64,000 nt of DNA, taken from assembly GCA_046563655.1 (NCBI GenBank), contig CM102289.1, positions 7,316,001 to 7,380,000 of the forward strand. The letters run 5' to 3'. The DNA comes from Yuukianura sp. NJ FZ-2021 (Eukaryota). Positions 1 through 31,005 of the stretch are shown in pieces. The notes beneath the pieces are model-generated. The model did no database searches. It had not been told where the DNA came from and saw only the letters and a program-made list of their open reading frames with translations. Every line of letters starts with the position of its first letter. Position 1 is the stretch's first letter. The translations under genes were made by a program, and so were the position numbers.

Positions 1-85
1 TTCTATGCAGAAATAAATTACAGAAACTGCACGTTAGCAGTTTGGACTAAATGCGAATCCACTTTTTTGTGCATTGATTTAAAAA

Positions 86-2913
86 TTAATGACTTCGACC
101 ACTTTGCCAGCGAGTACGACTTGACATTACGAATTCGGAACTTCGGGGATCTGTCATTGGTTGTCCAAAGCAATTAGCTAGGCAAGGGCACTTGCGCAGA
201 AGTGAAATTAGCTCTAAGCGGAACTTCTTTCCCAAGATGGAGTAGAACAAGAAGTTGACAGAGGAATTGACAATGACTGGAATGGAAGAGAAAACTTCGA
301 TGTCTCTGGGATCATAGCTTCCAAAGGACACGAATACCCAGATGATGGTTCCGTTGATTACGTTACTAATTACGAAAAAAATACTGACGCACAGAAGCAT
401 TACGGTCAGTGAGGTCATGTCACTTTCGCCTGACGCAGCAGACATGGATTGGCGATTCTTCAGTGACTGTTTGACCTATCAGAAAAAGAGAAAACCAAAA
501 ATAAAAACATTGATTAAAAAAAATTGCTAATTTTGTTGGCCGCACCTTAATCCATATTCTTGAATTGAGCACAGTGAGTAGAGGAATTGGAATGACGTAC
601 ATGAGGATAGCCCAGAAGTAGCCATGGTAGAATTGCCTGTAAGCACGTTCTTGTAAAATGTTTGGCTCATTGTACGCCCGTACCAAAATTTTTTGCAATC
701 GTGCTATGTACATCGGATTCCTTCGCATTTGCACTTTAATCGTAGAGCCAATAGTTTCAAACCAACGCGGTAAATTTACAACGATGGCTCCAATGAACAC
801 GATTATGCTCAAAATAACTGCTTTCCGTTTGTTTGTCCAAAACCGAATTTGAAGCGGGTAGCACACTGCTACAAATCGCTCCAACGTCACAATAATTGTT
901 ATGTACACAGATGCAGTGTGTGCTAGAAAGTTATTTAATATATTAAAACACAATTCTATAAAAATAAAACTTTTATAAATGTACTCAATACCTGTTTTGC
1001 TCAGCGGGTAAATATACTTGGACTGGAATTCTTCCAGCATCGTAACGGTCTCAATAGGTTGTTTTCCAAGGAGAGAAATTTCAGTTCCAGAACTGAAATG
1101 GCCCCATGGAAAATCATAAATTCCGAGGAATAGTGACACCAATTTGAATCCGTAGAGCGGTTGAGATAAAAACAACGTCCCCAGAATTGTTATATCAAAC
1201 AGCGCAAGTGCAATCATGAAGCAGCTTGTAGAGCTCATCATAGCCTTCCTCCTAAGGACTACAATGGAAATGACGTTTCCTAAAATTCCAACCAAACAAA
1301 CACCTCCGAGAACGTATATGTAGACGTAGAAGATCGTAACTTCTGTTGTCGCTTTGTCTTCTGGTCGAACTCCCAAAAATACCCATCTTCCATCGTACTT
1401 GCCTAGCCTAACATAATCTCCTTGCTTCGTAGAATTTGCATCTTCCAAAAATTTAAACACCTTGGCATTTTCTGCTCCGACTTGTTGCAGTCCTGTGATT
1501 GTTAATTCAGTCATTGAAGTATTCAAAAGTTGGCGCAAAAGGTCGTCGTTGATCTGATTGGTCAGATATACGTTTTCTAACTGACTGAACATGAATGAAA
1601 TATTTTCGACAACAGTGTCATCCAGGTCACAATTTTCTAGTGATAGAGAACGGATTGATTCGAATTGAAATCGTGAAGTCAATGTTAGTTTTAGGTCGCT
1701 TAGCGACAGCCATCTTATTGACTTCAGAGATTCCTTAAGAACTGAAAAGTCAAAGGTCATCTTTTGCTTCATATTACTTTGCTCAATGGTTATTGTATTA
1801 AGGGAAGTCAAATTCCTTAGGAATTCGAATCCTCCAACTTCAAATTTGACGTTGCGCAGTTCAATTTCTGTCAACACTGTACTGTTCAATGTGATTCCAG
1901 CGCTGTTGAATGCGGAGTTGTAAATTTTAAGCGTGTTCAACTTGGGCAGAATAGTTGGGTGATCGATTGATGCTGATGAATGGACAAGAACTGCATTGTC
2001 AATTGTGAACGACGTTAAAGATTCAGCATTGAGATAACTCAAGTCATACGTTGGGAATGAATACTGGAATGTGACATTTTGCAATTTCAACCTGTGAAAA
2101 ATGTAGAAAAAAGTGGGTTACTCAAAAACTGCCACCGATTAGTTTTGATTTCTTACTGTTCAACTTTGTTTAATCCTTGAAGAAGCGTGCTTGGTAAATT
2201 ATTCAAAAATTTTGAACACAGCACATCAAATTTCTTCACCTCGCTTCCATTGAATTTTGACAAGTCAATAACAGTTTCCACGGCTTCAAGAACTTTGTAT
2301 GGAAAGTACTGCTGCACGTCGTACGGAATTTTCTCCACCTTTAGTTCTTTCATAAAATAAACAAAGCTTCCGCCAAGTTCCGGCCGCAGAATTGTGGTCA
2401 TTGAGGCGATGGAAGCTAAATCTTCGTTTGGTGCATAGAATAACATGTCAAAGAAGTCTGATGGTGTACTTCCAGAAAATCCCCATTTTTTGCGCAAAAT
2501 GTCTACTCTGTATAATCTGGGAAGAGATACTTTTCCCCAAAATTGTCCATTCCACACAACGCCATTGAGCTTGATGTCGGTGAGACTTGTACATTCCTTT
2601 AATTCTTGTAGCAACTTTTTTGGATCAAATTCTACTGCAATTAGTGTAAGGTCTTCGATCGTTGATTTATTCTCGTATTGGATTTTTTCAAATTTTTCAA
2701 GTGGGTAATGCTCCCGCTCTCCCCGAATTATTACTTGATTCATCCACTAAAAACGTATACAACATCAATCATTTTTGTACGAATCGGTTACAGCATTGTA
2801 CATTTCTAATGTTAACCTACCACGCTTTCTTTTAGACTTTCTGCATTTGGGAAAATTGGCGCTGCAATGGCAAGAAAAGTCCAACACTTTAATACGAATA
2901 TGAAAATCGACAT
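86..2913 (-). CDS. Class A GPCR, FMRFamide/sex-peptide-receptor-like 7TM with signal peptide and ~475-aa LRR-like ectodomain (5 exons, 849 aa)
   Basis: Exons 2913-2821, 2746-2157, 2091-992, 922-546 and 475-86 join in frame through GT-AG introns (2550 nt). 7TM motifs: GILGNVISIVVL, LALFD, HTASVYITIIVTLERFVAVCYPL, NLPRWFE, NSSVNFLFY. N-terminal MSIFIFVLKCWTFLAIAAP is signal-like, and LxxLxLxN-like units follow (LPKLNTLKIYNS, IRSLSLENC, LTDIKLNGV). Confidence 0.85.
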
Positions 2914-3375
2914 GACGTTTTCTCCCTCAAAAATTTTGGAATCAATATCCACTTTGGCTTTTTTTAAAAGTCGTTTACTTTTTATCTCACACACGCTACT
3001 GACTTTCACATTAGCAACGCATCATTACTTAACTTGTGGTAACAGGAATGTGCGTTTTTTAAACTGTGCTAATTAACAAGTAACTCTTTCGGCAATTAGT
3101 AATTGTTGCTTTTCCTCAATTAAAATAGTTAAGGTTTAAGGTTTTACCGCTCTTTTCACATGAAGTGATAAAAGCTACGCAGTAAAATGAAAGTTGGGAT
3201 CACAACGCGTTTGCGGTTTCCGCTCAAGAAGTTAAGCCTCTTTTTAATTTGATTTTGATTGATGAGAATGACAACAAATTTTAACGCACGAGACATAACA
3301 AGGTTAGCAATTATCGATTTTGTGAATATCTCAGAATTTTGGATTTTTTTTAAAACTTGTATTGAACAAATTTTC

Positions 3376-4647
3376 TTAGCAAAAACCAATATCCCAGCAT
3401 CTGTCCGGTGCTTCGTTGCAAGTTTGCGTTTCAGAATCGTAGCATTCATCCCCACACCCAATTTGGCCTTGTGGGCAAAGAACGCGGTTGTGGCAAGTTA
3501 ATCCAGAAGTAACGGCGTTGTAACACCGATAGCCACAGAGTGATTCACCTAATTCACATAAGGTGCCACCATGACACGACTTTTCTTTGGGGTCAAAGCA
3601 ATCATAACCGCAAGGTGATTGGTCATTCGGGCACGGAAATTTACTGTACCCGGATTGCGTATGACAGGTTTCATTTTTTGGCCAGTAGCAGTAGTAGCTT
3701 CCGCACGGTTCTCTACCAGCATAGCAAACTTTCTTGTCGTTAAAGCAAGTTTCTTTGGTTGGGTCGTAACATTCGTAGCCACATAAAATGTTGCCTGCGT
3801 CACATTTTTGACCGTTGTGACAAGATTCTCCGTTTGCTTCCGAGTAACAGTTGCTTCCACACGGTTTTTCACCTTAAAAAAAATTTGTGGAGTTACATTT
3901 TTTTTATGTTAGACTTTCTTGATTTATAAATTAGAGAATTTTTGAAACCTTTTTTGCAAAGAACTTTTCCGGTACAATAAACTTCATCCGAAGGCGTGTA
4001 GCATTTGTAAGAGCCGCATGCGCTTTGACCTTTTGGACAAACTGTTTTGTCATTGACACAGTCGGAGGTCACGGGGTCATAACATCGGTGGTTGCAAAAT
4101 TGTTGGCCCTTTTCGCACAGCGTTCGGTGATTAAAGCATTCATGGGTGACTGGACTGTAACAATCGTATCCACAAACTTCTTCGGTTTGTTTGTAACAAA
4201 CAATTTCGTTGTTACGCAAGTAGCCTTGGTCGTTGCATGTTTGTGTCTCGGGCCAGTAGCATATGTGTCGGTTGCCACAAAGGCTTTGACCATTTTCGCA
4301 TACTGTGGTGCCATCTAGACAAGTTTGGTTTCCTGGAACGTAGCACGTATCCCCACAAGATTTCTGACCTTTGACACAGACTTGCTCGTTGTCATGACAT
4401 TCCTCCGTTTCCGGAGTGTAGCAACTATGGCCACAAAGGGACTGTGTCCTGGAGCATACGACGTACTCTACGCACGACACTGTTTCAACAAAAACGAGTC
4501 AATTTTTATGTTAACAAATAAGGAAGTTACTCTACTTTATCAGATTTTGGGAACAAAAAATTATGACTAAAAGTGCTTTTGAATTTTACCTTGTTCAATA
4601 ATTTGGAAGAGGACACAAATGGCTAAAACGCATGTCAGTTTTTCCAT
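3376..4647 (-). CDS. Secreted cysteine-rich repeat protein (12 four-Cys repeats, CBM52/galaxin-like; 361 aa)
   Basis: Exons 4647-4590 (MEKLTCVLAICVLFQIIEQ), 4479-3949 and 3872-3376, joined by phase-1 introns. The repeat C-x2-G-x3-CG-x2-CY-x-P-x4-C occurs 12 times. The correct frame of exon 3 is absent from the ORF track. Confidence 0.8.
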
Positions 4648-10348: not shown

Positions 10349-11886
10349 TCATCTCTTAAGCCTTGGTATCATTGCGGCAAATGGACTCCACCAGGGTTTG
10401 GAAGTGTTGCTGCTGCTTTCACTAGGCTTGTCAACTGGATACTTGATGGGTTCGTCATGATGTGAACTGTGACTGTGATTTGGTGGGTCTTGGTGGGGCA
10501 CTACAGTGGGATGCTGCTGTTGTTGATGAAAGTGTGATGGAAAATGCTGATGATGCGGATGGTTGTGGAGGTGATGATCATGTGGAGGAAAATGATGTTG
10601 ATGATTTAGTGGAGAAATGGGTCCTGGTTTTGGAATAAATGGAGGACCATTATAAGTAGGTGGACCATGACTGTGATGATGGTGACCATGATGGACTCCT
10701 TTCTTTTTGTCAACTAAGCCAAGTTCAAATAAAACTGGCTTGGAACTCAGAGCATGCGCAACGCCAAACGCAGCCAGTCCTGCTATTGGAGCAGCTATAA
10801 ATCCGGGATGGACTTCAACCTGATAGCGTTTTCTCTTGTGATCTGAAATCAACCCAAAAAAAAATTGAAAGTAAATCAAAATTCAAAATATGTGGAAGCT
10901 TCTATAAATACTCTAAAAATTCATATTTTAATTCAAAAATGTAATTTGAAATTACCGTAAACAGGATGATGGTGATAGTAAGGATGATGATAACTATATT
11001 GCCTTGGAACATCCCATGCATGGTGAATGACTGGAAACGACGTTGCGCTCGACTGCGCATGACTACTGTCATGTCCAATGACGCCGGTCGTCGGCCCTCC
11101 AAATCCAGTGTGGCCTAACACTCCATTGCCAGTAGTTCCGTAGCTGTTTGCAGAATTTGTACTGGATAAAAAGTTGCCAGTGGTTCCATGAGCCGACATG
11201 CGCGGTGGTAACGATACTTCGGTTGGGACAGGAGTATTTAGAATCTTAGGCGGTCTGTAACCCGTACTGGAAAAATGTGTGAAAGGTTGGAGGTCTTGCC
11301 AGTGATGAGTATTGGTGGCAGAAGTGATAGGATTCACATGATTATGAACATGAAGTCGTGTTTGATGATCATTTGCTAAAAAGTGTCTGTTTCTATTTTG
11401 AAAAGCGTAGGGGTCATATACACTGTCATGTGACCATGTTGGTTGTCCAAAGTTGTCATGAACATGGTCGTCAACTACTTTGAACGAAAGTGTTTTCGCG
11501 GCAACTTGGGAAGTATCTGGAACAGTATTGTCTTCGTTCCAAGTCCAATCTGGAATTGAAATGAAATGGGGATGAAACAAAACAAAATCAATTTTTTAAG
11601 CATTCGATCTTGAAAAACTTCAAATTTTACCAGAACTTCGACCAATTCCGGTGACTTTTGCTAGCTCTGTTTCAGTTGAATGAGGCCTGTTCGAATTCCA
11701 AATCCAATTTGCTTTGTTCTGTAGGTTCTGACTTGGAAAATTAGATGGATGCCAGTTTGAATCCGAATCGGTTTGACGATTCCATAAGTGAGATCTTTGT
11801 GGCTCTGAAAACTTGAGAACGTAGGCCAAGTGCTGATGAATTTGCAGAAACGTTAAAACTAAAAATATCGACTTTTTCAAATACAT
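10349..11886 (-). CDS. Histidine/proline-rich secreted low-complexity protein (3 exons, 447 aa)
   Basis: Exons 11886-11631, 11549-10956 and 10842-10349 join in frame (1344 nt). Signal-like MYLKKSIFLVLTFLQI, His-rich tracts (HHPYYHHHP, HHGHHHHSHG, HDHHLHNHPHHQH) and one hydrophobic stretch FIAAPIAGLAAFGVAHAL. Confidence 0.7.
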
Positions 11887-12383: not shown

Positions 12384-12973
12384 CTAGTTTTGAACACGGC
12401 CAATCACGTAGACGCAAATCACAATTTGGACGACAGTGAAGAGTTGAAGAGTCTGCGCAGAATTTGTAACGCTGGGAGAACATATTCCATCACCATTGGC
12501 ATTCAACAGACATTTTCCACTTTTACAGTTTTTGGCATTGTCGTTAGCATTTTTCTGAAACACCTTTAGGGCTTCCTTGGAAAGCTGAATGTCACTGGAA
12601 GCCGGCGGATCTTCGCAAAACGAGTCCTTACAGAGTTTTCCATCATCACATCCGAATCCGTTAACACGGTCATGGCTGCTGCCGCTGCCCTTTTCGTTGC
12701 CCTTCTTCATGGAAAAATAGACAGCAATGAACACTCCAACAGAAACGGCGAGGACGACTCCCATGACGATGAATCCATACATCATGCGTCGGTTCCGGTC
12801 ACGCTGAACACGTTCCACAACTTCTGGAGCTGGATTGTCGTAGTGAAAAACGACGTCCGGTTGGTGGTAACCATAGCCGTGACGACTGTGATGCTCCTAA
12901 GTAAAAAAAACAGCATAAAAATCATGCTAGCTCAACATGAATTAACTGTTCAAGTGATTAGACTTACATGCAT
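12384..12973 (-). CDS. Tandem-family copy A: TM + 6-Cys domain + hydrophobic C-tail protein
   Basis: Micro-exon ATG CAT|GTAAGT (12973-12968), then exon 12896-12384. Encodes HYDNPAPE, TM YGFIVMGVVLAVSVGVFIAVYFSM, CDDGKLC...CKSGKC-x9-C and tail LQLFTVVQIVICVYVIGR. Confidence 0.75.
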
Positions 12974-13309
12974 TACGGAAAATGTAAAGGATTCGAAAAT
13001 CAAAACCAAGATTTGTCGCTTGGGCAGAGTATTCTGACAGACCATAGACTATAAAATGAGATGCAGATAATGATGACACCGCACCGCGATCGCTCGCGCG
13101 CGAACCGACAACAGCAATCTGTCGAAAAAAAATTCCAAGCAAAGTGTATTTTTACAATCACTTAAAATCACCTTGGTGATCTGATCTTTTATTACAGAAA
13201 GCAGACCTTTTACTAAAAAAAAAAGGTTTAGTAAAAGGTTTAGTAATATCATGTACCAAATTTTTATTATGGTTTTTTACTAACCTTGAATAATGTCAAG
13301 CTATGTAGA

Positions 13310-13560
13310 TGTCAGACGCTATAAAAATCCGAGACAAGAGTCTATGAACCTGCGCAGAATCTTTATCACTGGCAGTGTATAACTTCCTCCATAAAATCAT
13401 TCACAAGCAAGCGGTTAAGCATAAAAACGCATGCAGTAACAAAACAAGAAATAAAAGTAAAATATCCTGAACATTGTTTTTAATGTGACTAAACGTAACA
13501 TGTCACAGATGGAATGTGGATTCGGAAAACCTACAACAAGCACGATATAGATTTCGCTTG
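13310..13560 (-). pseudogene. Tandem-family copy B: internally deleted remnant
   Basis: 13330-13410 matches the 3' coding part of the paralogs (gacaagagt..gaacctgcgcagaatc). 13512-13545 matches their shared upstream motif (gaatgtggattcggaaaacctacaacaagc). No ORF remains, and the ATG|GT donor is altered. Confidence 0.55.
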
Positions 13561-13834
13561 ATAAAATTCAACAAAATCACAATTGCAACTTCTCTTGCAA
13601 AAGAGTTAATAATAGTTCGTACTTCTTTTATTAATTTGACTAGTTTTAACCTCAATGCAAAGTTCAAGTTGGCGAAATTTTAATTGGTTGAAGTTACAAA
13701 GCTTGAATACGGTTTTTTATTAATTCAATTCGAATTAAAGTCAACACGAAGTCGAACTTTAGTCATTTTAATGGAAGCTTTGGCGGATGTAATTTAGTAC
13801 GGAGTATTTCCTTAGGCTGTGGTAGTTGGTGAAG

Positions 13835-14705
13835 TTACAAAGCTTGAATACGTCCACGCACGCAGGCGCAAAGTGCAGTCAGGACACTGGCCACGAACAG
13901 TAGAGGCTGCACAGAGTTTGCGATTACAGCAGATGGGCTGCAAACCGGTTCATTATAACGGCTCTCCAGACATTTTTTACTTTTACAATGGCCGGCATAC
14001 TCCTTGAGCTCTTCCTGCGTAAAATGCAAGGTGCCTTTGACAACCAAAATACAACAAGTTGTATTTGCTACACCAGGTTATTCAGTACCTCCCTACTTCA
14101 AAATTTTTGGAGGAAAACAATTTTTTCCTCCAATTTTCCTCCAATTCCATTAAATTACATACAAATCACTACCATAGCAAGGCACGGCGACGCAAGTTTT
14201 GCAAATTATTTGAGAAAATTAAAAACATCGACTTACTGAATAACCTGGTGTAGAATAAACAGTTTGTTTATTTGTTTACCCACCTTGGTAAAATGTTTGA
14301 CCTTCTCCCACTGCATTTTTTCTGTGGTCCTGGCGGCGTGACAGTCTGGGTAAGTGTCACAGGCTTTCCCATCGTCACATAACTTCGAATCACCACTGTC
14401 GCTTTTCTTGTCCTTGTTGTCCGCTGGTTGTCCTTGTTGTTGCTTCATATAGTACATGATACCAACGATAAGTCCCACAGAAACCAGGAGGGAGATTCCC
14501 GAGACGATGAATCCATAAATCATCCGTCGGTTCCGATCACGCTGAACCTGCTCCACAACTTCTGGAGCTGGATTGTCGTAGTGAAAAACGACGTCGGGTT
14601 GGTGGTGGCGAAAACTGTGATGACTGTCGTGCTACGTAAAAAAACATAAAAATCACGCCAGGCAAACATAGACTAAACTGTACAAGTGAATGGACTTACA
14701 GGCAT
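13835..14705 (-). CDS. Tandem-family copy C (3 exons, extra intron containing a MITE)
   Basis: ATG CCT|GTAAGT at 14705. Exon ~14631-14284, then intron 14283-14015 (AAG|GT...CAG|GAA), then exon 14014-13835. Splicing restores the family C3-C4 spacing of 28 aa and gives CKSKKC-x9-C plus the tail PLLFVASVLTALCACV. Confidence 0.7.
14071..14250. mobile_element. MITE-like element, 180 bp, TA target-site duplication (Tc1/mariner-type signature)
   Basis: Perfect 20-bp inverted repeat ctacaccaggttattcagta (14068-14087) / tactgaataacctggtgtag (14234-14253), which includes the flanking TA on each side. The interior is AT-rich and non-coding. Confidence 0.75.
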
Positions 14706-15011
14706 TACGGAAAATTTGGAGAACTGGAAAATCAAAACCACGATTTGTCGCTTGGACAGAAAATGGCGACAGGCTTGACTGAATTGAGATAGATGAGGAA
14801 ACTGCGGGAAAATACCGAGGTATCGCCAACAGCAATCCGTCGTAAAATTTGAAACAAACTTTAGCGCTACAATACCTAAAATCACTATGGTGATATTTGT
14901 ATTTAAATTTTGATATTTTACCGAAAGCGAAATTTTAATTTCATGTTCCTGTTTGTTTGGCTTTTTAAAGTGAAGTTATTTATAATAATTAAAGTGCAGT
15001 TTTTAGAATAC

Positions 15012-15337
15012 TCAAAATTTTAAAAAGCTCGAAGACGCCATCAACATACCAGACAAGAGTGATTGAACCTGCGCAGAATCCGTACCACTTGCAGCACATA
15101 CATCATCCCCAAAAGCATTCACCAGGCATTTTCCACTTTTACACCGGCCATTTTGCCCATTCGTTGTTTCTTGAAATTCAAGTGCAACAAATTCCTGTGA
15201 GTGCTGGGTCACCGCAACCTTTGCAGAGTTTTCCATCATGGCATTTCGCAAGATCAGCGGAACTTTCATGTTTCTTGTCCCCGACAACCACGAAATTGAC
15301 GAGGGCCCCAAGACCTCCAAGTACTAAGAACAACACT
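15012..15337 (-). pseudogene. Tandem-family copy D2: 5'-truncated, frameshifted duplicate of copy E
   Basis: Starts mid-TM (VLFLVLGGLGALVNFVVVG). CHDGKLCKGC is in one frame, with a stop soon after; CKSGKCLVNAFGDDVCAASGTDSAQ is in another. The frameshift lies near 15190. Confidence 0.7.
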
Positions 15338-15419
15338 TTTTGTTGAACAACACAAAAAATTTTTTGAAACAATTCCAAAAATCAATTTGGTTTCATCGTA
15401 TTTTATTAAAATAGAAGAG

Positions 15420-15782
15420 CAGTCTGGGAAAGTGTTACAGGCCATCCCATCGTCACATAACTTCGAATCACCACTGTCGCTTTTCTTGTCCTTGTTGTCC
15501 GCTGGTTGTCCTTGTTGTTGCTTCATATTGTACATGAAACCAACGGTAAGTCCCACAACAACCAGGAGGACGACTCCCGTGGCGATGAATCCATAAATCA
15601 TCCGTCGGTTCCGATCACGCTGAACCTGCTCCACAACTTCTGGAGCTGGATTGTCGTAGTGAAAAACGACGTCCGGTTGGTGGTGGCGATAATCGTGATG
15701 ACTGTCGTGCTACGTAAAAAACATAAAAATCACGCGAGGTAAACATAAATTAAACTGTACAAGTGAGTGGACTTACAGGCAT
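15420..15782 (-). pseudogene. Tandem-family copy D1: 3'-truncated duplicate of copy C
   Basis: ATG CCT|GTAAGT at 15782. Encodes QRDRNRRM, the TM and CDDGMACNTFPDC, then homology ends at ~15420 in AT-rich filler. C4-C6 and the tail are missing. Confidence 0.65.
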
Positions 15783-16092
15783 TACGGAAAATTTGGAGAA
15801 TTCGAAAATCAAAACCACGATTTGTCGCTTGGACCGAAAATGGCGACAGGCTTGACTGAATTGAGATTGATGAGGAAACTGCGGGAAAATTCAGAGGTAT
15901 CGCCAACAGCAATCCGTCGAAAAAATTTTTGAAACAAACTTTATAGCTACAATACCTAAAATCACCATGGTGATGTATTTGTATCTAAATTTTGATATTT
16001 TACCGAAAGCGAAAATTTTAATTTCAAGTTCCAGTTTAGTTTGGCTTTTTAAAGTGTAGTTAGTTATAATTATTTTTAGAATACTCAAAATT

Positions 16093-16755
16093 TTAAAAAG
16101 CCTGAAAACGTCCAAGTACGCAGACGGTAGACGCCATCAAAATACCACACAAGAGTGGTTGAGTCTGAGCAGAATCCGTACCACTCGCAGCACATACGTT
16201 CTGCCCAAAAGCATTCACCAGGCATTTTCCACTTTTACACCCGCCACTTTTCCCATCCGCATAAAGTTCTTGAAAACGAAGCATGTCTTGTGCAGAAATA
16301 CGCGTTCCTTCGAGTTGTGGAGCACCGCATTTTTTACAGAGTTGTCCATCATGGCATTTCCAACGATCATCGGGACTTCCCTTTTTGCTGCCCCCGACAA
16401 CCACGAAATTGACAAGAGCCCCAAGACCTCCAAGTACTAAGAACAACACTGCCAGGCCAACGAAGACTTTCCAGGTACCTTTACGTCCTTGTGCCTGGGC
16501 TTGTTGGACTTGTTCTGGAGTCGGATTGTTGTAACGCATGGTCACATTTCCACGAGCGTCTTCAACCATAACCGTACTTGGAACTGCATTGGTTTGTTGA
16601 AAACCGGAGCTTTGACCGGGTTGATCCGAAATTAAATCTTGAGTTGTATTTTCGTAAGCAAACGCTGAAGCCTAAACAAGGCAGTGACCAATTAAGATTT
16701 TAAAATAAAAGCAAAACATTCAAACATAAATTTTGAATTGAGTAAACTTTACCAT
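16093..16755 (-). CDS. Tandem-family copy E
   Basis: Met-only first exon ATG|GTAAAG (16755-16753). The acceptor tttag|GCT TCA GCG opens ASAFAYENTTQ...RYNNPTPE, TM, CHDGQLCKKC...CKSGKC-x9-C and tail PLLCGILMASTVCVLGR. Confidence 0.8.
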
Positions 16756-17139
16756 GTCGGTACCAGAATGTGGATTCGGAATTCAAAAACAAGCGGGATA
16801 TCCGTTCTGACAAACAATTTAATGGGGCTGCTGTACGGTAGATTAAAATTTGACTGCGCGAGAACGGCAAATCACATCTTGCCAAATTAAAAATTTGGTT
16901 TTTCACTGGAAAATTTTTTGAGACAAGCAATATTTTCATAATCCTTTAGACAGACCGCACGTTGGTGATACCAAAGTTAATAAATCTGCATTTTACTCTA
17001 TTTTTCAGAATTCTCTTAAAAATTATTTTCTCCCTTATATCGTTTATTAATTCATTTCAAATTTAAATCAACATGAACATACGACGGAATATGTGTAATG
17101 ATTAAATAGTTTTACTGTAGATTGTGGTAATTGTTGAAG

Positions 17140-17813
17140 TTACAAAGCTGGAATACGTCCAAGCACGCATGCGCAAAGTGTAGTCAAGACGCCAGTCATG
17201 AGCAGAAGGGGTTGCACAGCATTCAGCCCAACAGCATTAGTAGGGGTGCATACCGTCTCGCCGAATGTATTCACCAGACATTGTCCACTTTTGCAATTGC
17301 GGGCCGCAAGGGTGGCCACTTGCTGTATGATAGTTCTCTCCCGCTCCGGAATTCCGTTTCCTTCACCGGTAGCAGGGCCGCATCCTGGATACGTGTCACA
17401 GAGTTTCCCCGCGTCACACTTCGGAGCGCCACCACTGCCGTCGTCTTTGTTCTTTTTAGCGTACATGACCCCGAGGCTGATGCCCACACAAACGACCACG
17501 AAGGCTGCCATGCCAATGAAAATGTAGCAACTTTTACCCCGTCGTCGTGCTTGGGCTTGTTGGACTTGTTCTGGGGTCGGATTGTTGTAACGCATGGTCA
17601 CATTTCCACGAGCGTCTTCAACCATAACCGTACTTGGAACCGCATTGTTTTGTTGAAAACCGGAACTTTGACCAGGTTGATTCGAGGCAAAATTTTGACC
17701 TGTATTGTCGAAAGTAAATCCTGAAGCCTAAAAAAAGGCAGTGACCAAATAAAAACTTGACATAAAAGTACAGCATGCTGAACATGGATTTTAGAGTGAG
17801 TAAACTTTACCAT
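17140..17813 (-). CDS. Tandem-family copy F
   Basis: ATG|GTAAAG at 17813. In-frame exon 2 encodes RYNNPTPE, TM CYIFIGMAAFVVVCVGISLGVMYA, CDAGKLCDTYPGC...CKSGQC-x9-C and tail PLLLMTGVLTTLCACVLGR. Confidence 0.8.
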
Positions 17814-18248
17814 GTCGTAGTCAGAATGTGGAATTGACAACCTAAAACAAGCGGGATGTCGTTTGGACAAACAATTTAAAGAGACTGACGTACGGTAGAT
17901 GAAAATTCGACCGCCGAGAACAACAAATCTCAACAGCTTGTTTGAAAATTAACTTTTTTTTATTGAATAATATTTTTAAACAAACTCCATTTTCATAATC
18001 TTATAGTCAGAAATCACCTTGGAGATACAAATACGAATGTCTGCAATAATTTACTTCTTCTTTTTTCAAAATTCAAAAAATCATCAAAAAAAATATCTCT
18101 TACATCGTTTATTTCAATTCAAATTTAAATGAACATGAACTTATAACGTACTATATACTAAGTTTAATTTTTTACCGAAACTTTATAATTTCAGTTTCTA
18201 AACAAATTTTGTGTTAGGGTAGTGTGAATATTGTTGTGTTTAGAATAC

Positions 18249-18918
18249 TCAAAATTTTACAAGGGTTGAATAACGCCCAACGATGTAGATGCTGGATGCT
18301 GTCAAAATAGCAGACAAGAGTGGTTGAGCCTGCGCAGAATCCGTACCACTTGGAGCACATACGTCCCGATGAAAGGCATTCACCATGCAAAATCCACTTT
18401 TACACCAATCATTGTGCTTCTCCGCAAATCGTTGAAAATCAATTATTTGATCTGCAGAGATACGGGTTCCATCGAGTTGTGGGTTTTTGCAGTTATCGCA
18501 AAGTTTTCCATCATCACATTTCGGACGATCCGCGGGACCTCCCTTTTTGCTGCCCCCGACAACCACGAAATTGACGAGGGCCCCAAGACCTCCAAGTACT
18601 AAGAACAACACTGCCAGGCCAACGAAGATTTTCCAGGTACCTTTATTTGCTTCTGCCTGGGCTTGTTGGACTTGTTCTGGGGTCGGATTGTTGTAACGCA
18701 CGGTCACATTTCCACGAGCGTCTTCAACCAGAACCGTACTTGGAACTGCATTGTTTTGTTGAACACCGGAGCTTTGACCAGGTTGATCCGAAATTAAATC
18801 TTGAGTTGTATTTTCGTAAGCAAACGCTGAAGCCTAAACAGAGGCAGTGACCAATTAAAATGTTGAGATAAAAGTAAAACATCCAAACATAAGGTTTAAA
18901 TTTAGTAAATCTTACCAT
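18249..18918 (-). CDS. Tandem-family copy G
   Basis: ATG|GTAAG at 18918. Exon 2 is closely similar to copy E and encodes CDDGKLCDNC...CKSGFC-x9-C and tail PLLSAILTASSIYIVGR. Confidence 0.8.
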
Positions 18919-30471: not shown

Positions 30472-30590
30472 GCCAAGGTCCATACCACGTTGAAAGCACC
30501 AGTTCTCGTCCGATCACTGAAGTTAAGCAACGTCGGGCCCGGTTAGTACTTGGATGGGTGACCGCCTGGGAACCCCGGGTGCTCTTGGCT
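30472..30590 (+). rRNA. 5S ribosomal RNA, copy 1
   Basis: 119 nt gccaaggtccataccacgttgaaagcacc...gaagttaagc...ttagtacttggatgggtgaccgcctgggaacccc...ttggct. The 5' and 3' ends pair, the internal Pol III boxes are present, and a T-run terminator follows. Confidence 0.97.
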
Positions 30591-30677
30591 TCTTTTTTTA
30601 CCAGCATTTTCAAATTTTTATATTTTGGAATCTGGGGAACTTGTGCTTTGACTGTGTGTTATTTTCCTTCTCCTTTC

Positions 30678-30796
30678 GCCAAGGTCCATACCACGTTGAA
30701 AGCACCAGTTCTCGTCCGATCACTGAAGTTAAGCAACGTCGGGCCCGGTTAGTACTTGGATGGGTGACCGCCTGGGAACCCCGGGTGCTCTTGGCT
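30678..30796 (+). rRNA. 5S ribosomal RNA, copy 2
   Basis: Identical to copy 1, 206 bp downstream, followed by a T-run. Confidence 0.97.
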
Positions 30797-30886
30797 TCTT
30801 TTTTTTTTAACGCCAACTTCAAATTTGTATATTTTTCAATGTGGGGAACTTGTGCTTTGACTTTGTGTTATTTTCCTTTTCCTTTC

Positions 30887-31005
30887 GCCAAGGTCCATAC
30901 CACGTTGAAAGCACCAGTTCTCGTCCGATCACTGAAGTTAAGCAACGTCGGGCCCGGTTAGTACTTGGATGGGTGACCGCCTGGGAACCCCGGGTGCTCT
31001 TGGCA
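30887..31005 (+). rRNA. 5S ribosomal RNA, copy 3
   Basis: Identical except for the terminal base (ggca), 209 bp after copy 2, followed by a T-run. Confidence 0.96.

Follow-up and report, generated by a model that had tools for sequence, protein, structure and literature searches.

We examined a 64,000-nucleotide window from Yuukianura sp. NJ FZ-2021 (contig CM102289.1, positions 7,316,001 to 7,380,000; coordinates below are those of the window). Positions 2913..86 of its minus strand form an intact five-exon gene. The product of 849 amino acids (aa) is probably a receptor with an outside N-terminus, in which a leucine-rich repeat (LRR) ectodomain is joined to a seven-transmembrane (7TM) domain of the FMRFamide-receptor type. 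Its family is divergent and probably gained LRRs separately from the classical LGRs (G-protein-coupled receptors that contain LRRs), which are the glycoprotein-hormone, R-spondin and relaxin receptors. The protein is best described as a convergent LRR-bearing G-protein-coupled receptor (GPCR) on a neuropeptide-receptor scaffold. In order, the predicted layout is a signal peptide, a cysteine-poor LRR solenoid of ~16-17 repeats, a helix with a β-hairpin and a class A seven-helix domain. An initial annotation of this DNA had proposed that an LRR-like ectodomain is fused to a 7TM domain. The fusion is confirmed by the 849-aa frame, by an exon that both parts share (exon 3) and by 12 homologous open reading frames (ORFs) holding both parts.

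The gene model started from three minus-strand stop-to-stop ORFs (2153..2746, 420..2117 and 86..475) and from a reading of the sequence. Exon coordinates were joined by script. The resulting coding sequence has 2550 nucleotides (nt) and a single stop codon, at its end. The four introns measure 74, 65, 69 and 70 nt. All are of the GT..AG type, with acceptors in which AG is preceded by a T-rich tract. The donors are, in order, GTAGGT, GTAAGA, GTATTG and GTGCGG. When four exon translations were compared with the 64-kb window by tblastn, the gene itself was the only match.

Exon 1 (2821..2913; minus strand, like every feature of the gene) comes from the sequence reading. It starts with ATG at 2913-2911, encodes 31 aa and ends at the GTAGGT donor at 2820. 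Residues 1-22 are hydrophobic and signal-peptide-like (Kyte-Doolittle value 2.2 over these residues). Where contigs differ by insertions or deletions (indels), these affect the downstream intron (2781-2791) or sequence upstream of the ATG (2958), and the exon itself has none. The placement of exon 1 and its putative signal peptide follow from sequence logic only, and homologues do not confirm the exon. Intron 1 (2747..2820; 74 nt, GT..AG) holds indels of 2, 4 and 1 nt in a contig from another run. Exon 2 (2157..2746; translation P0002) encodes the N-terminal half of the ectodomain, aa 32-228, and ends in phase 2 at the GTAAGA donor. Intron 2 (2092..2156; 65 nt, GT..AG) is absent from six homologous ORFs.

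Exon 3 (992..2091; translation P0001) is a single open frame ending in phase 1 at the GTATTG donor. It encodes the C-terminal LRR half (8 repeats), a linker of helix plus β-hairpin, transmembrane helices TM1 and TM2, and a long first extracellular loop (ECL1). Intron 3 (923..991; 69 nt) follows. Exon 4 (546..922; translation P0003; donor GTGCGG) encodes TM3, TM4, a long ECL2 and TM5. After intron 4 (476..545; 70 nt), in which other contigs have a 2-nt deletion at 515, exon 5 (86..475; translation P0004) encodes the third intracellular loop, TM6, TM7, helix 8 and a tail with a cysteine cluster. The stop codon is TAA at 88-86. By hydropathy, nothing after aa 1-22 is hydrophobic until TM1 (477-509). 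The same analysis places TM2 at 512-539, TM3 at ~597-618, TM4 at 625-652, TM5 at 695-717 and TM6 at 738-772. The motifs quoted in the initial annotation are all present; TASVY...ERFVAVCYP in TM3 and NLPRWFE are encoded by exon 4, and NSSVNFLFY in TM7 by exon 5.

The junction between the two domains lies inside exon 3. In a single frame, this exon alone carries ~250 ectodomain residues followed by TM1, TM2 and ECL1. Hence, the junction needs no splice call. The initial annotation had placed the entire fusion in this exon (2091-992). The union with TM1-TM2 stands, but the exon covers only the last ~250 of the ~450 ectodomain residues. The first ~200 come from exon 2 and hence depend on the exon 2/3 splice.

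To find relatives, we queried 1.84 billion representative proteins with exon 3 in an exhaustive HMMER search, which returned 50 matches at E<=1e-3. Twelve of these cover the ectodomain together with TM1-2. The best, P0009, is 52% identical; the rest are at ~24-36%. The remaining matches comprise 36 that cover the TM1-2 stretch only, 1 ectodomain-only fragment and 1 unrelated LRR protein. Half of the spanning ORFs (6 of the 12) also include the equivalent of exon 2 in the same ORF. For example, exon 2 aligns with residues 8-185 of homologue P0014 (BLASTP E 1e-15), in which this part runs on into the LRRs and TM1-2 and is modelled as LRR strands. Because homologues hold both parts in one ORF, the exon 2/3 join is supported.

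All of these ORFs end just past a conserved YPLxKTG motif, the place of intron 3 in the window. A search for related loci with a five-sequence alignment gave three loci, and members of the family are encoded on three contigs of one metagenome. On two of the contigs (L001 and L002), an ORF for TM3-TM5 lies downstream of the LRR-TM1-2 ORF. The junctions are those of the window. Briefly, a phase-1 donor follows KT-G, so that intron 3 has the same position and phase; an acceptor precedes YTGSVY; and the exon ends before a GTAAAC donor, at the position of intron 4. Exon 4 is 32% and 36% identical to the downstream exons of L001 and L002, respectively. The intron between KT-G and x-YTGSVY is ~115-165 nt in these relatives (L001 2109-2245, L002 1464-1647) and 69 nt in the window, with phase 1 kept. 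Their TM3 reads ERYIAVCWPF where the window has ERFVAVCYPL.

A word-index search for longer relatives of exon 3 (642-2000 aa) found none. Likewise, no full-length annotated family protein was found in the exhaustive protein search, where the ectodomain-bearing matches are all single-exon ORFs of at most 610 aa. The family seems to be unannotated, divergent and multigene, and so far seen only in unannotated assemblies.

We assessed the fold of the ectodomain with AlphaFold2. The model of exon 3, made with 12 homologues, has a mean predicted local distance difference test score (pLDDT) of 82.1 and a predicted template modelling score (pTM) of 0.66. For a 581-aa homologue covering the whole ectodomain, pLDDT is 81.5 and pTM 0.70. 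In both models, DSSP assigns short strands every ~20-25 residues. This corresponds to ~8 repeats in exon 3 and ~17 in the whole homologue. After the repeats, a helix and a β-hairpin are modelled, ending ~4-7 residues before the TM1 helix. When both models were compared with the PDB by Foldseek, the matches listed were almost all LRR proteins, with probabilities of ~1.00 for the leading rows. They include internalins, TLR2/7/8/9, LRRC8, Roco LRR, LRRTM2 and designed LRRs. The TM-scores are low (0.2-0.3), as expected because the curvature differs and two loose transmembrane helices are attached. In a VIA-align comparison, all 50 rows listed are LRR proteins (Z 11.2-14.0; 153-219 residues aligned; root mean square deviation ~3-6 A). 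Hence, an LRR solenoid is the predicted fold of the ectodomain.

Only three cysteines are present in the mature ectodomain of ~450 aa (Cys83, Cys208 and Cys382). The domain therefore has neither LRRNT/LRRCT-type caps nor a cysteine-rich hinge. A Pfam scan found no LDLa or other domain between the LRRs and TM1. In the Atlas feature search, the ectodomain reached LRR clusters at 0.83-0.86, below the lead threshold of 0.9. The ectodomain had also been called rich in N-glycosylation sites, a description that proved marginal. It has 8 N-X-S/T sequons. Over 2000 shuffles the number is 4.5 +/- 1.9, and 8 is reached in 5.9% of them, so that the enrichment is not significant.

The 7TM core appears to be of a different type from that of LGRs. 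We used the Pfam model 7TM_GPCR_Srw (PF10324; Srw), which has a curated cut-off of 22.2 bits and is carried by named FMRFamide receptors. It is matched by exon 3 (TM1, residues 264-308; 23.7 bits), by exon 5 (TM6-7; 23.6 bits, 3.8e-5, profile positions 220-316 of 319) and by 8 of 14 family members. Exon 4 matches Pfam 7tm_1 (6.6e-8) and, in the Atlas feature search, generic 7tm_1 clusters. A word-index search with exon 4 gave only 4 distant matches. The best of these, P0005, is an insect FMRFamide-receptor orthologue; it is 72% identical to an NCBI 'FMRFamide receptor-like' protein, and its own match list is full of FMRFamide-receptor names.

We then compared the spliced 7TM domain (aa 466-849) with named insect FMRFamide receptors. 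Identity is 29-32% over ~320-350 aa, with E values of 1e-33 to 1e-37 in a 175-sequence database. The alignments run through the exon 3/4 and 4/5 joins and hence check those splices. They keep GN in TM1, FD in TM2, TASVY..ERF..AVC.PL in TM3, P in TM5 and NSSVNFxxY in TM7. Loss of the TM3-ECL2 disulfide was considered as a family-specific trait and dropped, as some aligned insect FMRFamide receptors also lack those cysteines.

A maximum-likelihood tree was built from TM1-TM5 (25 rows, 403 columns) with the window, L001, L002, 8 named FMRFamide receptors and 14 unnamed receptors. The three LRR-bearing 7TM domains form one group (100/99). In this tree, which includes no LGR, sex-peptide, myosuppressin or DMSR references, the group falls on the side of the 8 named insect FMRFamide receptors and P0049, as opposed to 12 unnamed receptors (95/90). 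The initial annotation had assigned the 7TM to the group of FMRFamide, sex-peptide and myosuppressin receptors. Nearness to FMRFamide receptors is borne out, and placement within the group is limited to the receptors sampled. The further claims, that the 7TM is not LGR-like and that the LRR-GPCR evolved independently, agree with the Srw match and with the FMRFamide-receptor similarity and grouping. Taken with the three-cysteine ectodomain, these support an independent origin as far as it could be tested.

To assess coding constraint, we compared DNA contigs from two studies; the four runs listed from these studies are all DNA. At least 34 differences within exon 3 are among those listed (the table has 137 further rows). 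Twenty of the 34 are at third codon positions (binomial p=0.002). The indels listed are in intron 1, intron 4, the 3' untranslated region and upstream of the ATG, with the exception of one compensating +1/-1 pair. Because the frame is open, homologues exist, intron positions are shared, third positions are in excess and indels are mostly outside exons, we conclude that this is a real and intact gene, subject to coding constraint in the ectodomain as well.

The same data may include further copies. In run X1, 225 contigs align with window positions 1-3100 at 85-100% identity, concentrated over the TM-coding parts. By identity, 50 are at >=99%, 86 at 95-99%, 55 at 90-95% and 34 at <90%. One X1 variant skips 81 nt (27 codons, 666->748) within the ECL2-coding part of exon 4. 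This pile-up points to a number of close paralogues or divergent haplotypes, in some of which ECL2 would be shorter. The contig alignment gives no copy number, and the 225 contigs may be paralogues, haplotypes or both. A contig of run X4, from the second study, has a depth of ~64 against ~5 for contigs resembling the orthologous locus. It skips 65 nt that coincide almost exactly with intron 3 (924-990; the intron has 69 nt) and joins 1831 back to 869. This contig could represent a paralogue that is intron-poor or processed, material derived from RNA (the run type is guessed) or an assembly chimera.

Several points weigh against our interpretation. The LRR call depends on structures predicted from shallow alignments of 13-14 sequences. 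Pfam LRR_4 matches the window at E 0.077 only, and 3 of 14 family members match any Pfam LRR model (PF24758 LRR_At5g56370, best E 8.3e-7). The stem of the LRR clade is long, at 1.82 changes per column, so its attachment point may suffer long-branch effects. The 7TM appears nearest to FMRFamide receptors only among the sequences sampled, none of them an LGR, sex-peptide receptor or myosuppressin receptor. In the PDB, the sequence matches of the 7TM pieces are generic and weak (best E 1.6e-4). Sequence logic and homology are the basis for exon 1, for the exon joins and for expression of the long form. Finally, we infer the ligand, the G-protein coupling and a mechanical link between the domains.

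A first competing explanation accepts the protein and denies the LRRs the primary role in ligand sensing. The receptor would be an ordinary one for FMRFamide-like peptides, with a small amidated peptide bound in the helical pocket. The LRR domain would be an accessory for localisation, dimerisation, adhesion or auto-inhibition. This is a serious possibility, though we think it the less likely option. The 7TM does retain the motifs of peptide-binding FMRFamide receptors and groups with them, and mean pairwise identity across the family is 45% for TM1-TM2 against 23% for the LRR part. Conversely, an ectodomain of ~450 aa has been kept open and structured across members that are ~25-30% identical, and the enlarged ECL1 and ECL2 would fit a remodelled entrance to the pocket. 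A quite different possibility is that the long form is not made at all, either because the gene is decaying or mis-modelled or because the transcript starts just upstream of TM1 and gives a short N-terminus. The exclusive use of DNA runs and the unconfirmed exon 1 leave room for it. However, the frame is open for 849 aa over five exons, the third-position excess extends to the ectodomain part, the indels listed avoid exons, and the LRR part shares one ORF with TM1 in 12 relatives. Nor is any in-frame arrangement of ATG plus signal needed, as TM1 follows directly in exon 3. We regard this explanation as very improbable.

It is also improbable, in our view, that the protein is a very divergent true LGR. 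The layout would then derive from a common LGR ancestor, as in the non-canonical LGRs of sea anemone and placozoan, and the 7TM would have drifted or converged. Passages of PMC9545775 give an architectural definition under which a long LRR N-terminus makes every family-A GPCR an LGR, and LGR4 and TSHR are among the Foldseek LRR matches listed. Dozens of unrelated LRR proteins, however, rank at least as high as those two matches. The ectodomain has no cysteine-rich N-cap or hinge, and the end-to-end similarity of the 7TM is specific to FMRFamide receptors and Srw. We also searched PDB sequences with the TM1-2, TM3-5 and TM6-7 pieces and with a three-sequence TM3-5 profile. Among the matches listed (best 60 of 73, all 17, best 60 of 193 and best 60 of 336), no chain of FSHR, LHCGR, TSHR, LGR4/5 or RXFP was found. 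Those listed are vasopressin, TRH, somatostatin, opioid, CCK, neuromedin-U, cannabinoid and aminergic receptors. As the matches are weak, they indicate no more than a lack of special closeness to LGR-type helices.

On our favoured interpretation, of an LRR receptor with an FMRFamide-type core, the protein would probably work as follows. The N-terminus would be cleaved as a signal peptide, leaving the LRR domain facing outward. This domain would capture a ligand, most likely a protein or peptide, that is too large for the helical pocket or is presented to it. We infer ligand binding because nearly all extracellular LRR domains bind ligands. The ectodomain would be tethered to TM1 by the hairpin and a few residues, beside the enlarged ECL1 and ECL2. 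Given this near-direct seating, binding would alter the contacts between ectodomain, loops and bundle, and the helical bundle would shift to its active state. Coupling to G proteins would then use switch residues common to working FMRFamide receptors, namely GN in TM1, D in TM2, ERF after TM3, P in TM5 and NSSVNFxxY in TM7.

That the receptor senses protein or microbial ligands, as the initial annotation had suggested, is speculation. More broadly, we offer as a doubtful extension that this gene could be one of a set of LRR-FMRFamide-type GPCRs, lineage-specific and fast-diversifying, which act directly in pattern recognition or chemosensation. In such receptors, the LRR surface would be variable and wired to G-protein signalling without a cysteine-rich hinge. 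By analogy with Toll-like or VLR-type recognition, the targets might be proteins, or macromolecules of microbial or environmental origin.

The window comes from an animal genome and has tightly packed genes with short introns. Neighbours of the receptor gene include a sulfate-permease-family gene, a UDP-glucuronosyltransferase, an alpha-amylase-family glucosidase, a MYND/SET protein, a FAT-like cadherin and three 5S rRNA genes. Directly upstream of the receptor gene and on the same strand, 3376-4498 (minus) holds two adjacent frames (165 and 201 aa) for a cysteine-rich protein with the repeat C-G-x-x-C-Y-x-P-x-x-x-x-C; these have no Pfam match at E<=0.001. Two frames at 10349-11595 (minus; 177 and 220 aa) contain many His, Pro and Gln residues, including runs like HHGHHHHSH, and the 220-aa frame has no Pfam match. 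Six tandem paralogous frames occupy 12384-18833 of the minus strand (12384-12896, 14233-14631, 15266-15709, 16093-16671, 17140-17727 and 18249-18833). Their products are small membrane proteins of the single-pass type, in which YNNPTPEQV / YDNPAPEVV is conserved ahead of the helix and the tail is cysteine-patterned. A Pfam scan of two of these frames (12387-12896 and 16096-16671) gave no match. The 5S rRNA genes are in tandem on the plus strand (30472-31005; period ~206-209 nt; 108-109 bits each), flanked by a 327-aa ORF of unknown family and the MYND/SET gene.

To our knowledge, LGRs have been treated as the sole class A lineage with LRR ectodomains. Their activation, through the hinge, tethered segments and a push-pull mechanism, has been studied as an LGR speciality. 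The receptor described here would be a second, independently assembled LRR-class A receptor, with a neuropeptide-receptor core and almost no linker or disulfides. It would thus be a natural experiment in how an extracellular solenoid drives a 7TM bundle, and would mean that domain shuffling has produced the LRR-7TM layout repeatedly. The family is in no annotated proteome reached. Hence, receptor catalogues of the lineage probably miss or split it. Should the pattern-recognition proposal be true, LRR sensing would be coupled to a class A 7TM in a second, mechanistically distinct way. The family could also be a new kind of invertebrate recognition receptor, provided that its LRR surfaces turn out to be fast-evolving ligand sensors.

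Known LGRs are the natural comparison. They comprise FSHR/LHCGR/TSHR, LGR4-6 and RXFP1/2, together with insect DLGR1-4; type C carries LDLa. Like these, the receptor is predicted to combine a signal peptide, an LRR solenoid ectodomain and a class A 7TM, with the LRRs directly before TM1. The number of repeats, ~16-17, is like that of type B LGRs. The likely logic is also the same, in that a large ligand would be captured by the LRRs and the signal relayed to the helical bundle. Unlike LGRs, the receptor appears to have a 7TM of the FMRFamide-receptor/Srw type, and its ectodomain has no cysteine-rich N-cap, cysteine-rich hinge or LDLa module. Where LGRs have a long hinge, the predicted linker here is a helix and a hairpin ending a few residues before TM1. 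Its repeats, unlike theirs, are mostly missed by Pfam LRR models. According to passages of PMC9545775, LGR types A-C have a cysteine-rich N-terminal cap and a subtype-specific cysteine-rich hinge. The same source describes many non-canonical LGRs with hinge regions of their own.

We found no description of an LRR ectodomain on an FMRFamide/Srw-type 7TM in the open-access literature, supplements aside. Passages of PMC3971589 concern RGS proteins. LRRs do occur in the N-terminal region of another kind of seven-helix receptor (passages of PMC6408891). These are the adhesion GPCRs with LRRs, namely ADGRA2/3 (GPR124/125) and the octopus expansion of adhesion GPCRs. Such receptors belong to class B2 and carry GAIN/GPS, whereas the 7TM in the window is of class A and no other domain was found between its LRRs and TM1.

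Toll/TLR, LRRTM and internalin-like proteins are extracellular LRR ligand binders and are among the best structural neighbours of the modelled ectodomain. They are single-pass or secreted, with a TIR or no signalling domain. In contrast, the output module here is a GPCR. For that module, the closest known system is the insect FMRFamide receptors (Drosophila FR) and the Srw group, with which the 7TM is colinear and which are nearest in the tree. Shared features are GN, FD, TASVY..ERF/Y..AVC.PL, an NLPRFWE-like end of TM4, P in TM5 and NSSVNFxIY. Compared with FMRFamide receptors, ECL1 is ~20 aa longer, ECL2 is also longer, and the branch is long and outside the insect clade. Finally, FMRFamide receptors have short unstructured N-termini of ~20-130 aa, whereas the protein described here has a predicted folded LRR domain of ~450 aa.

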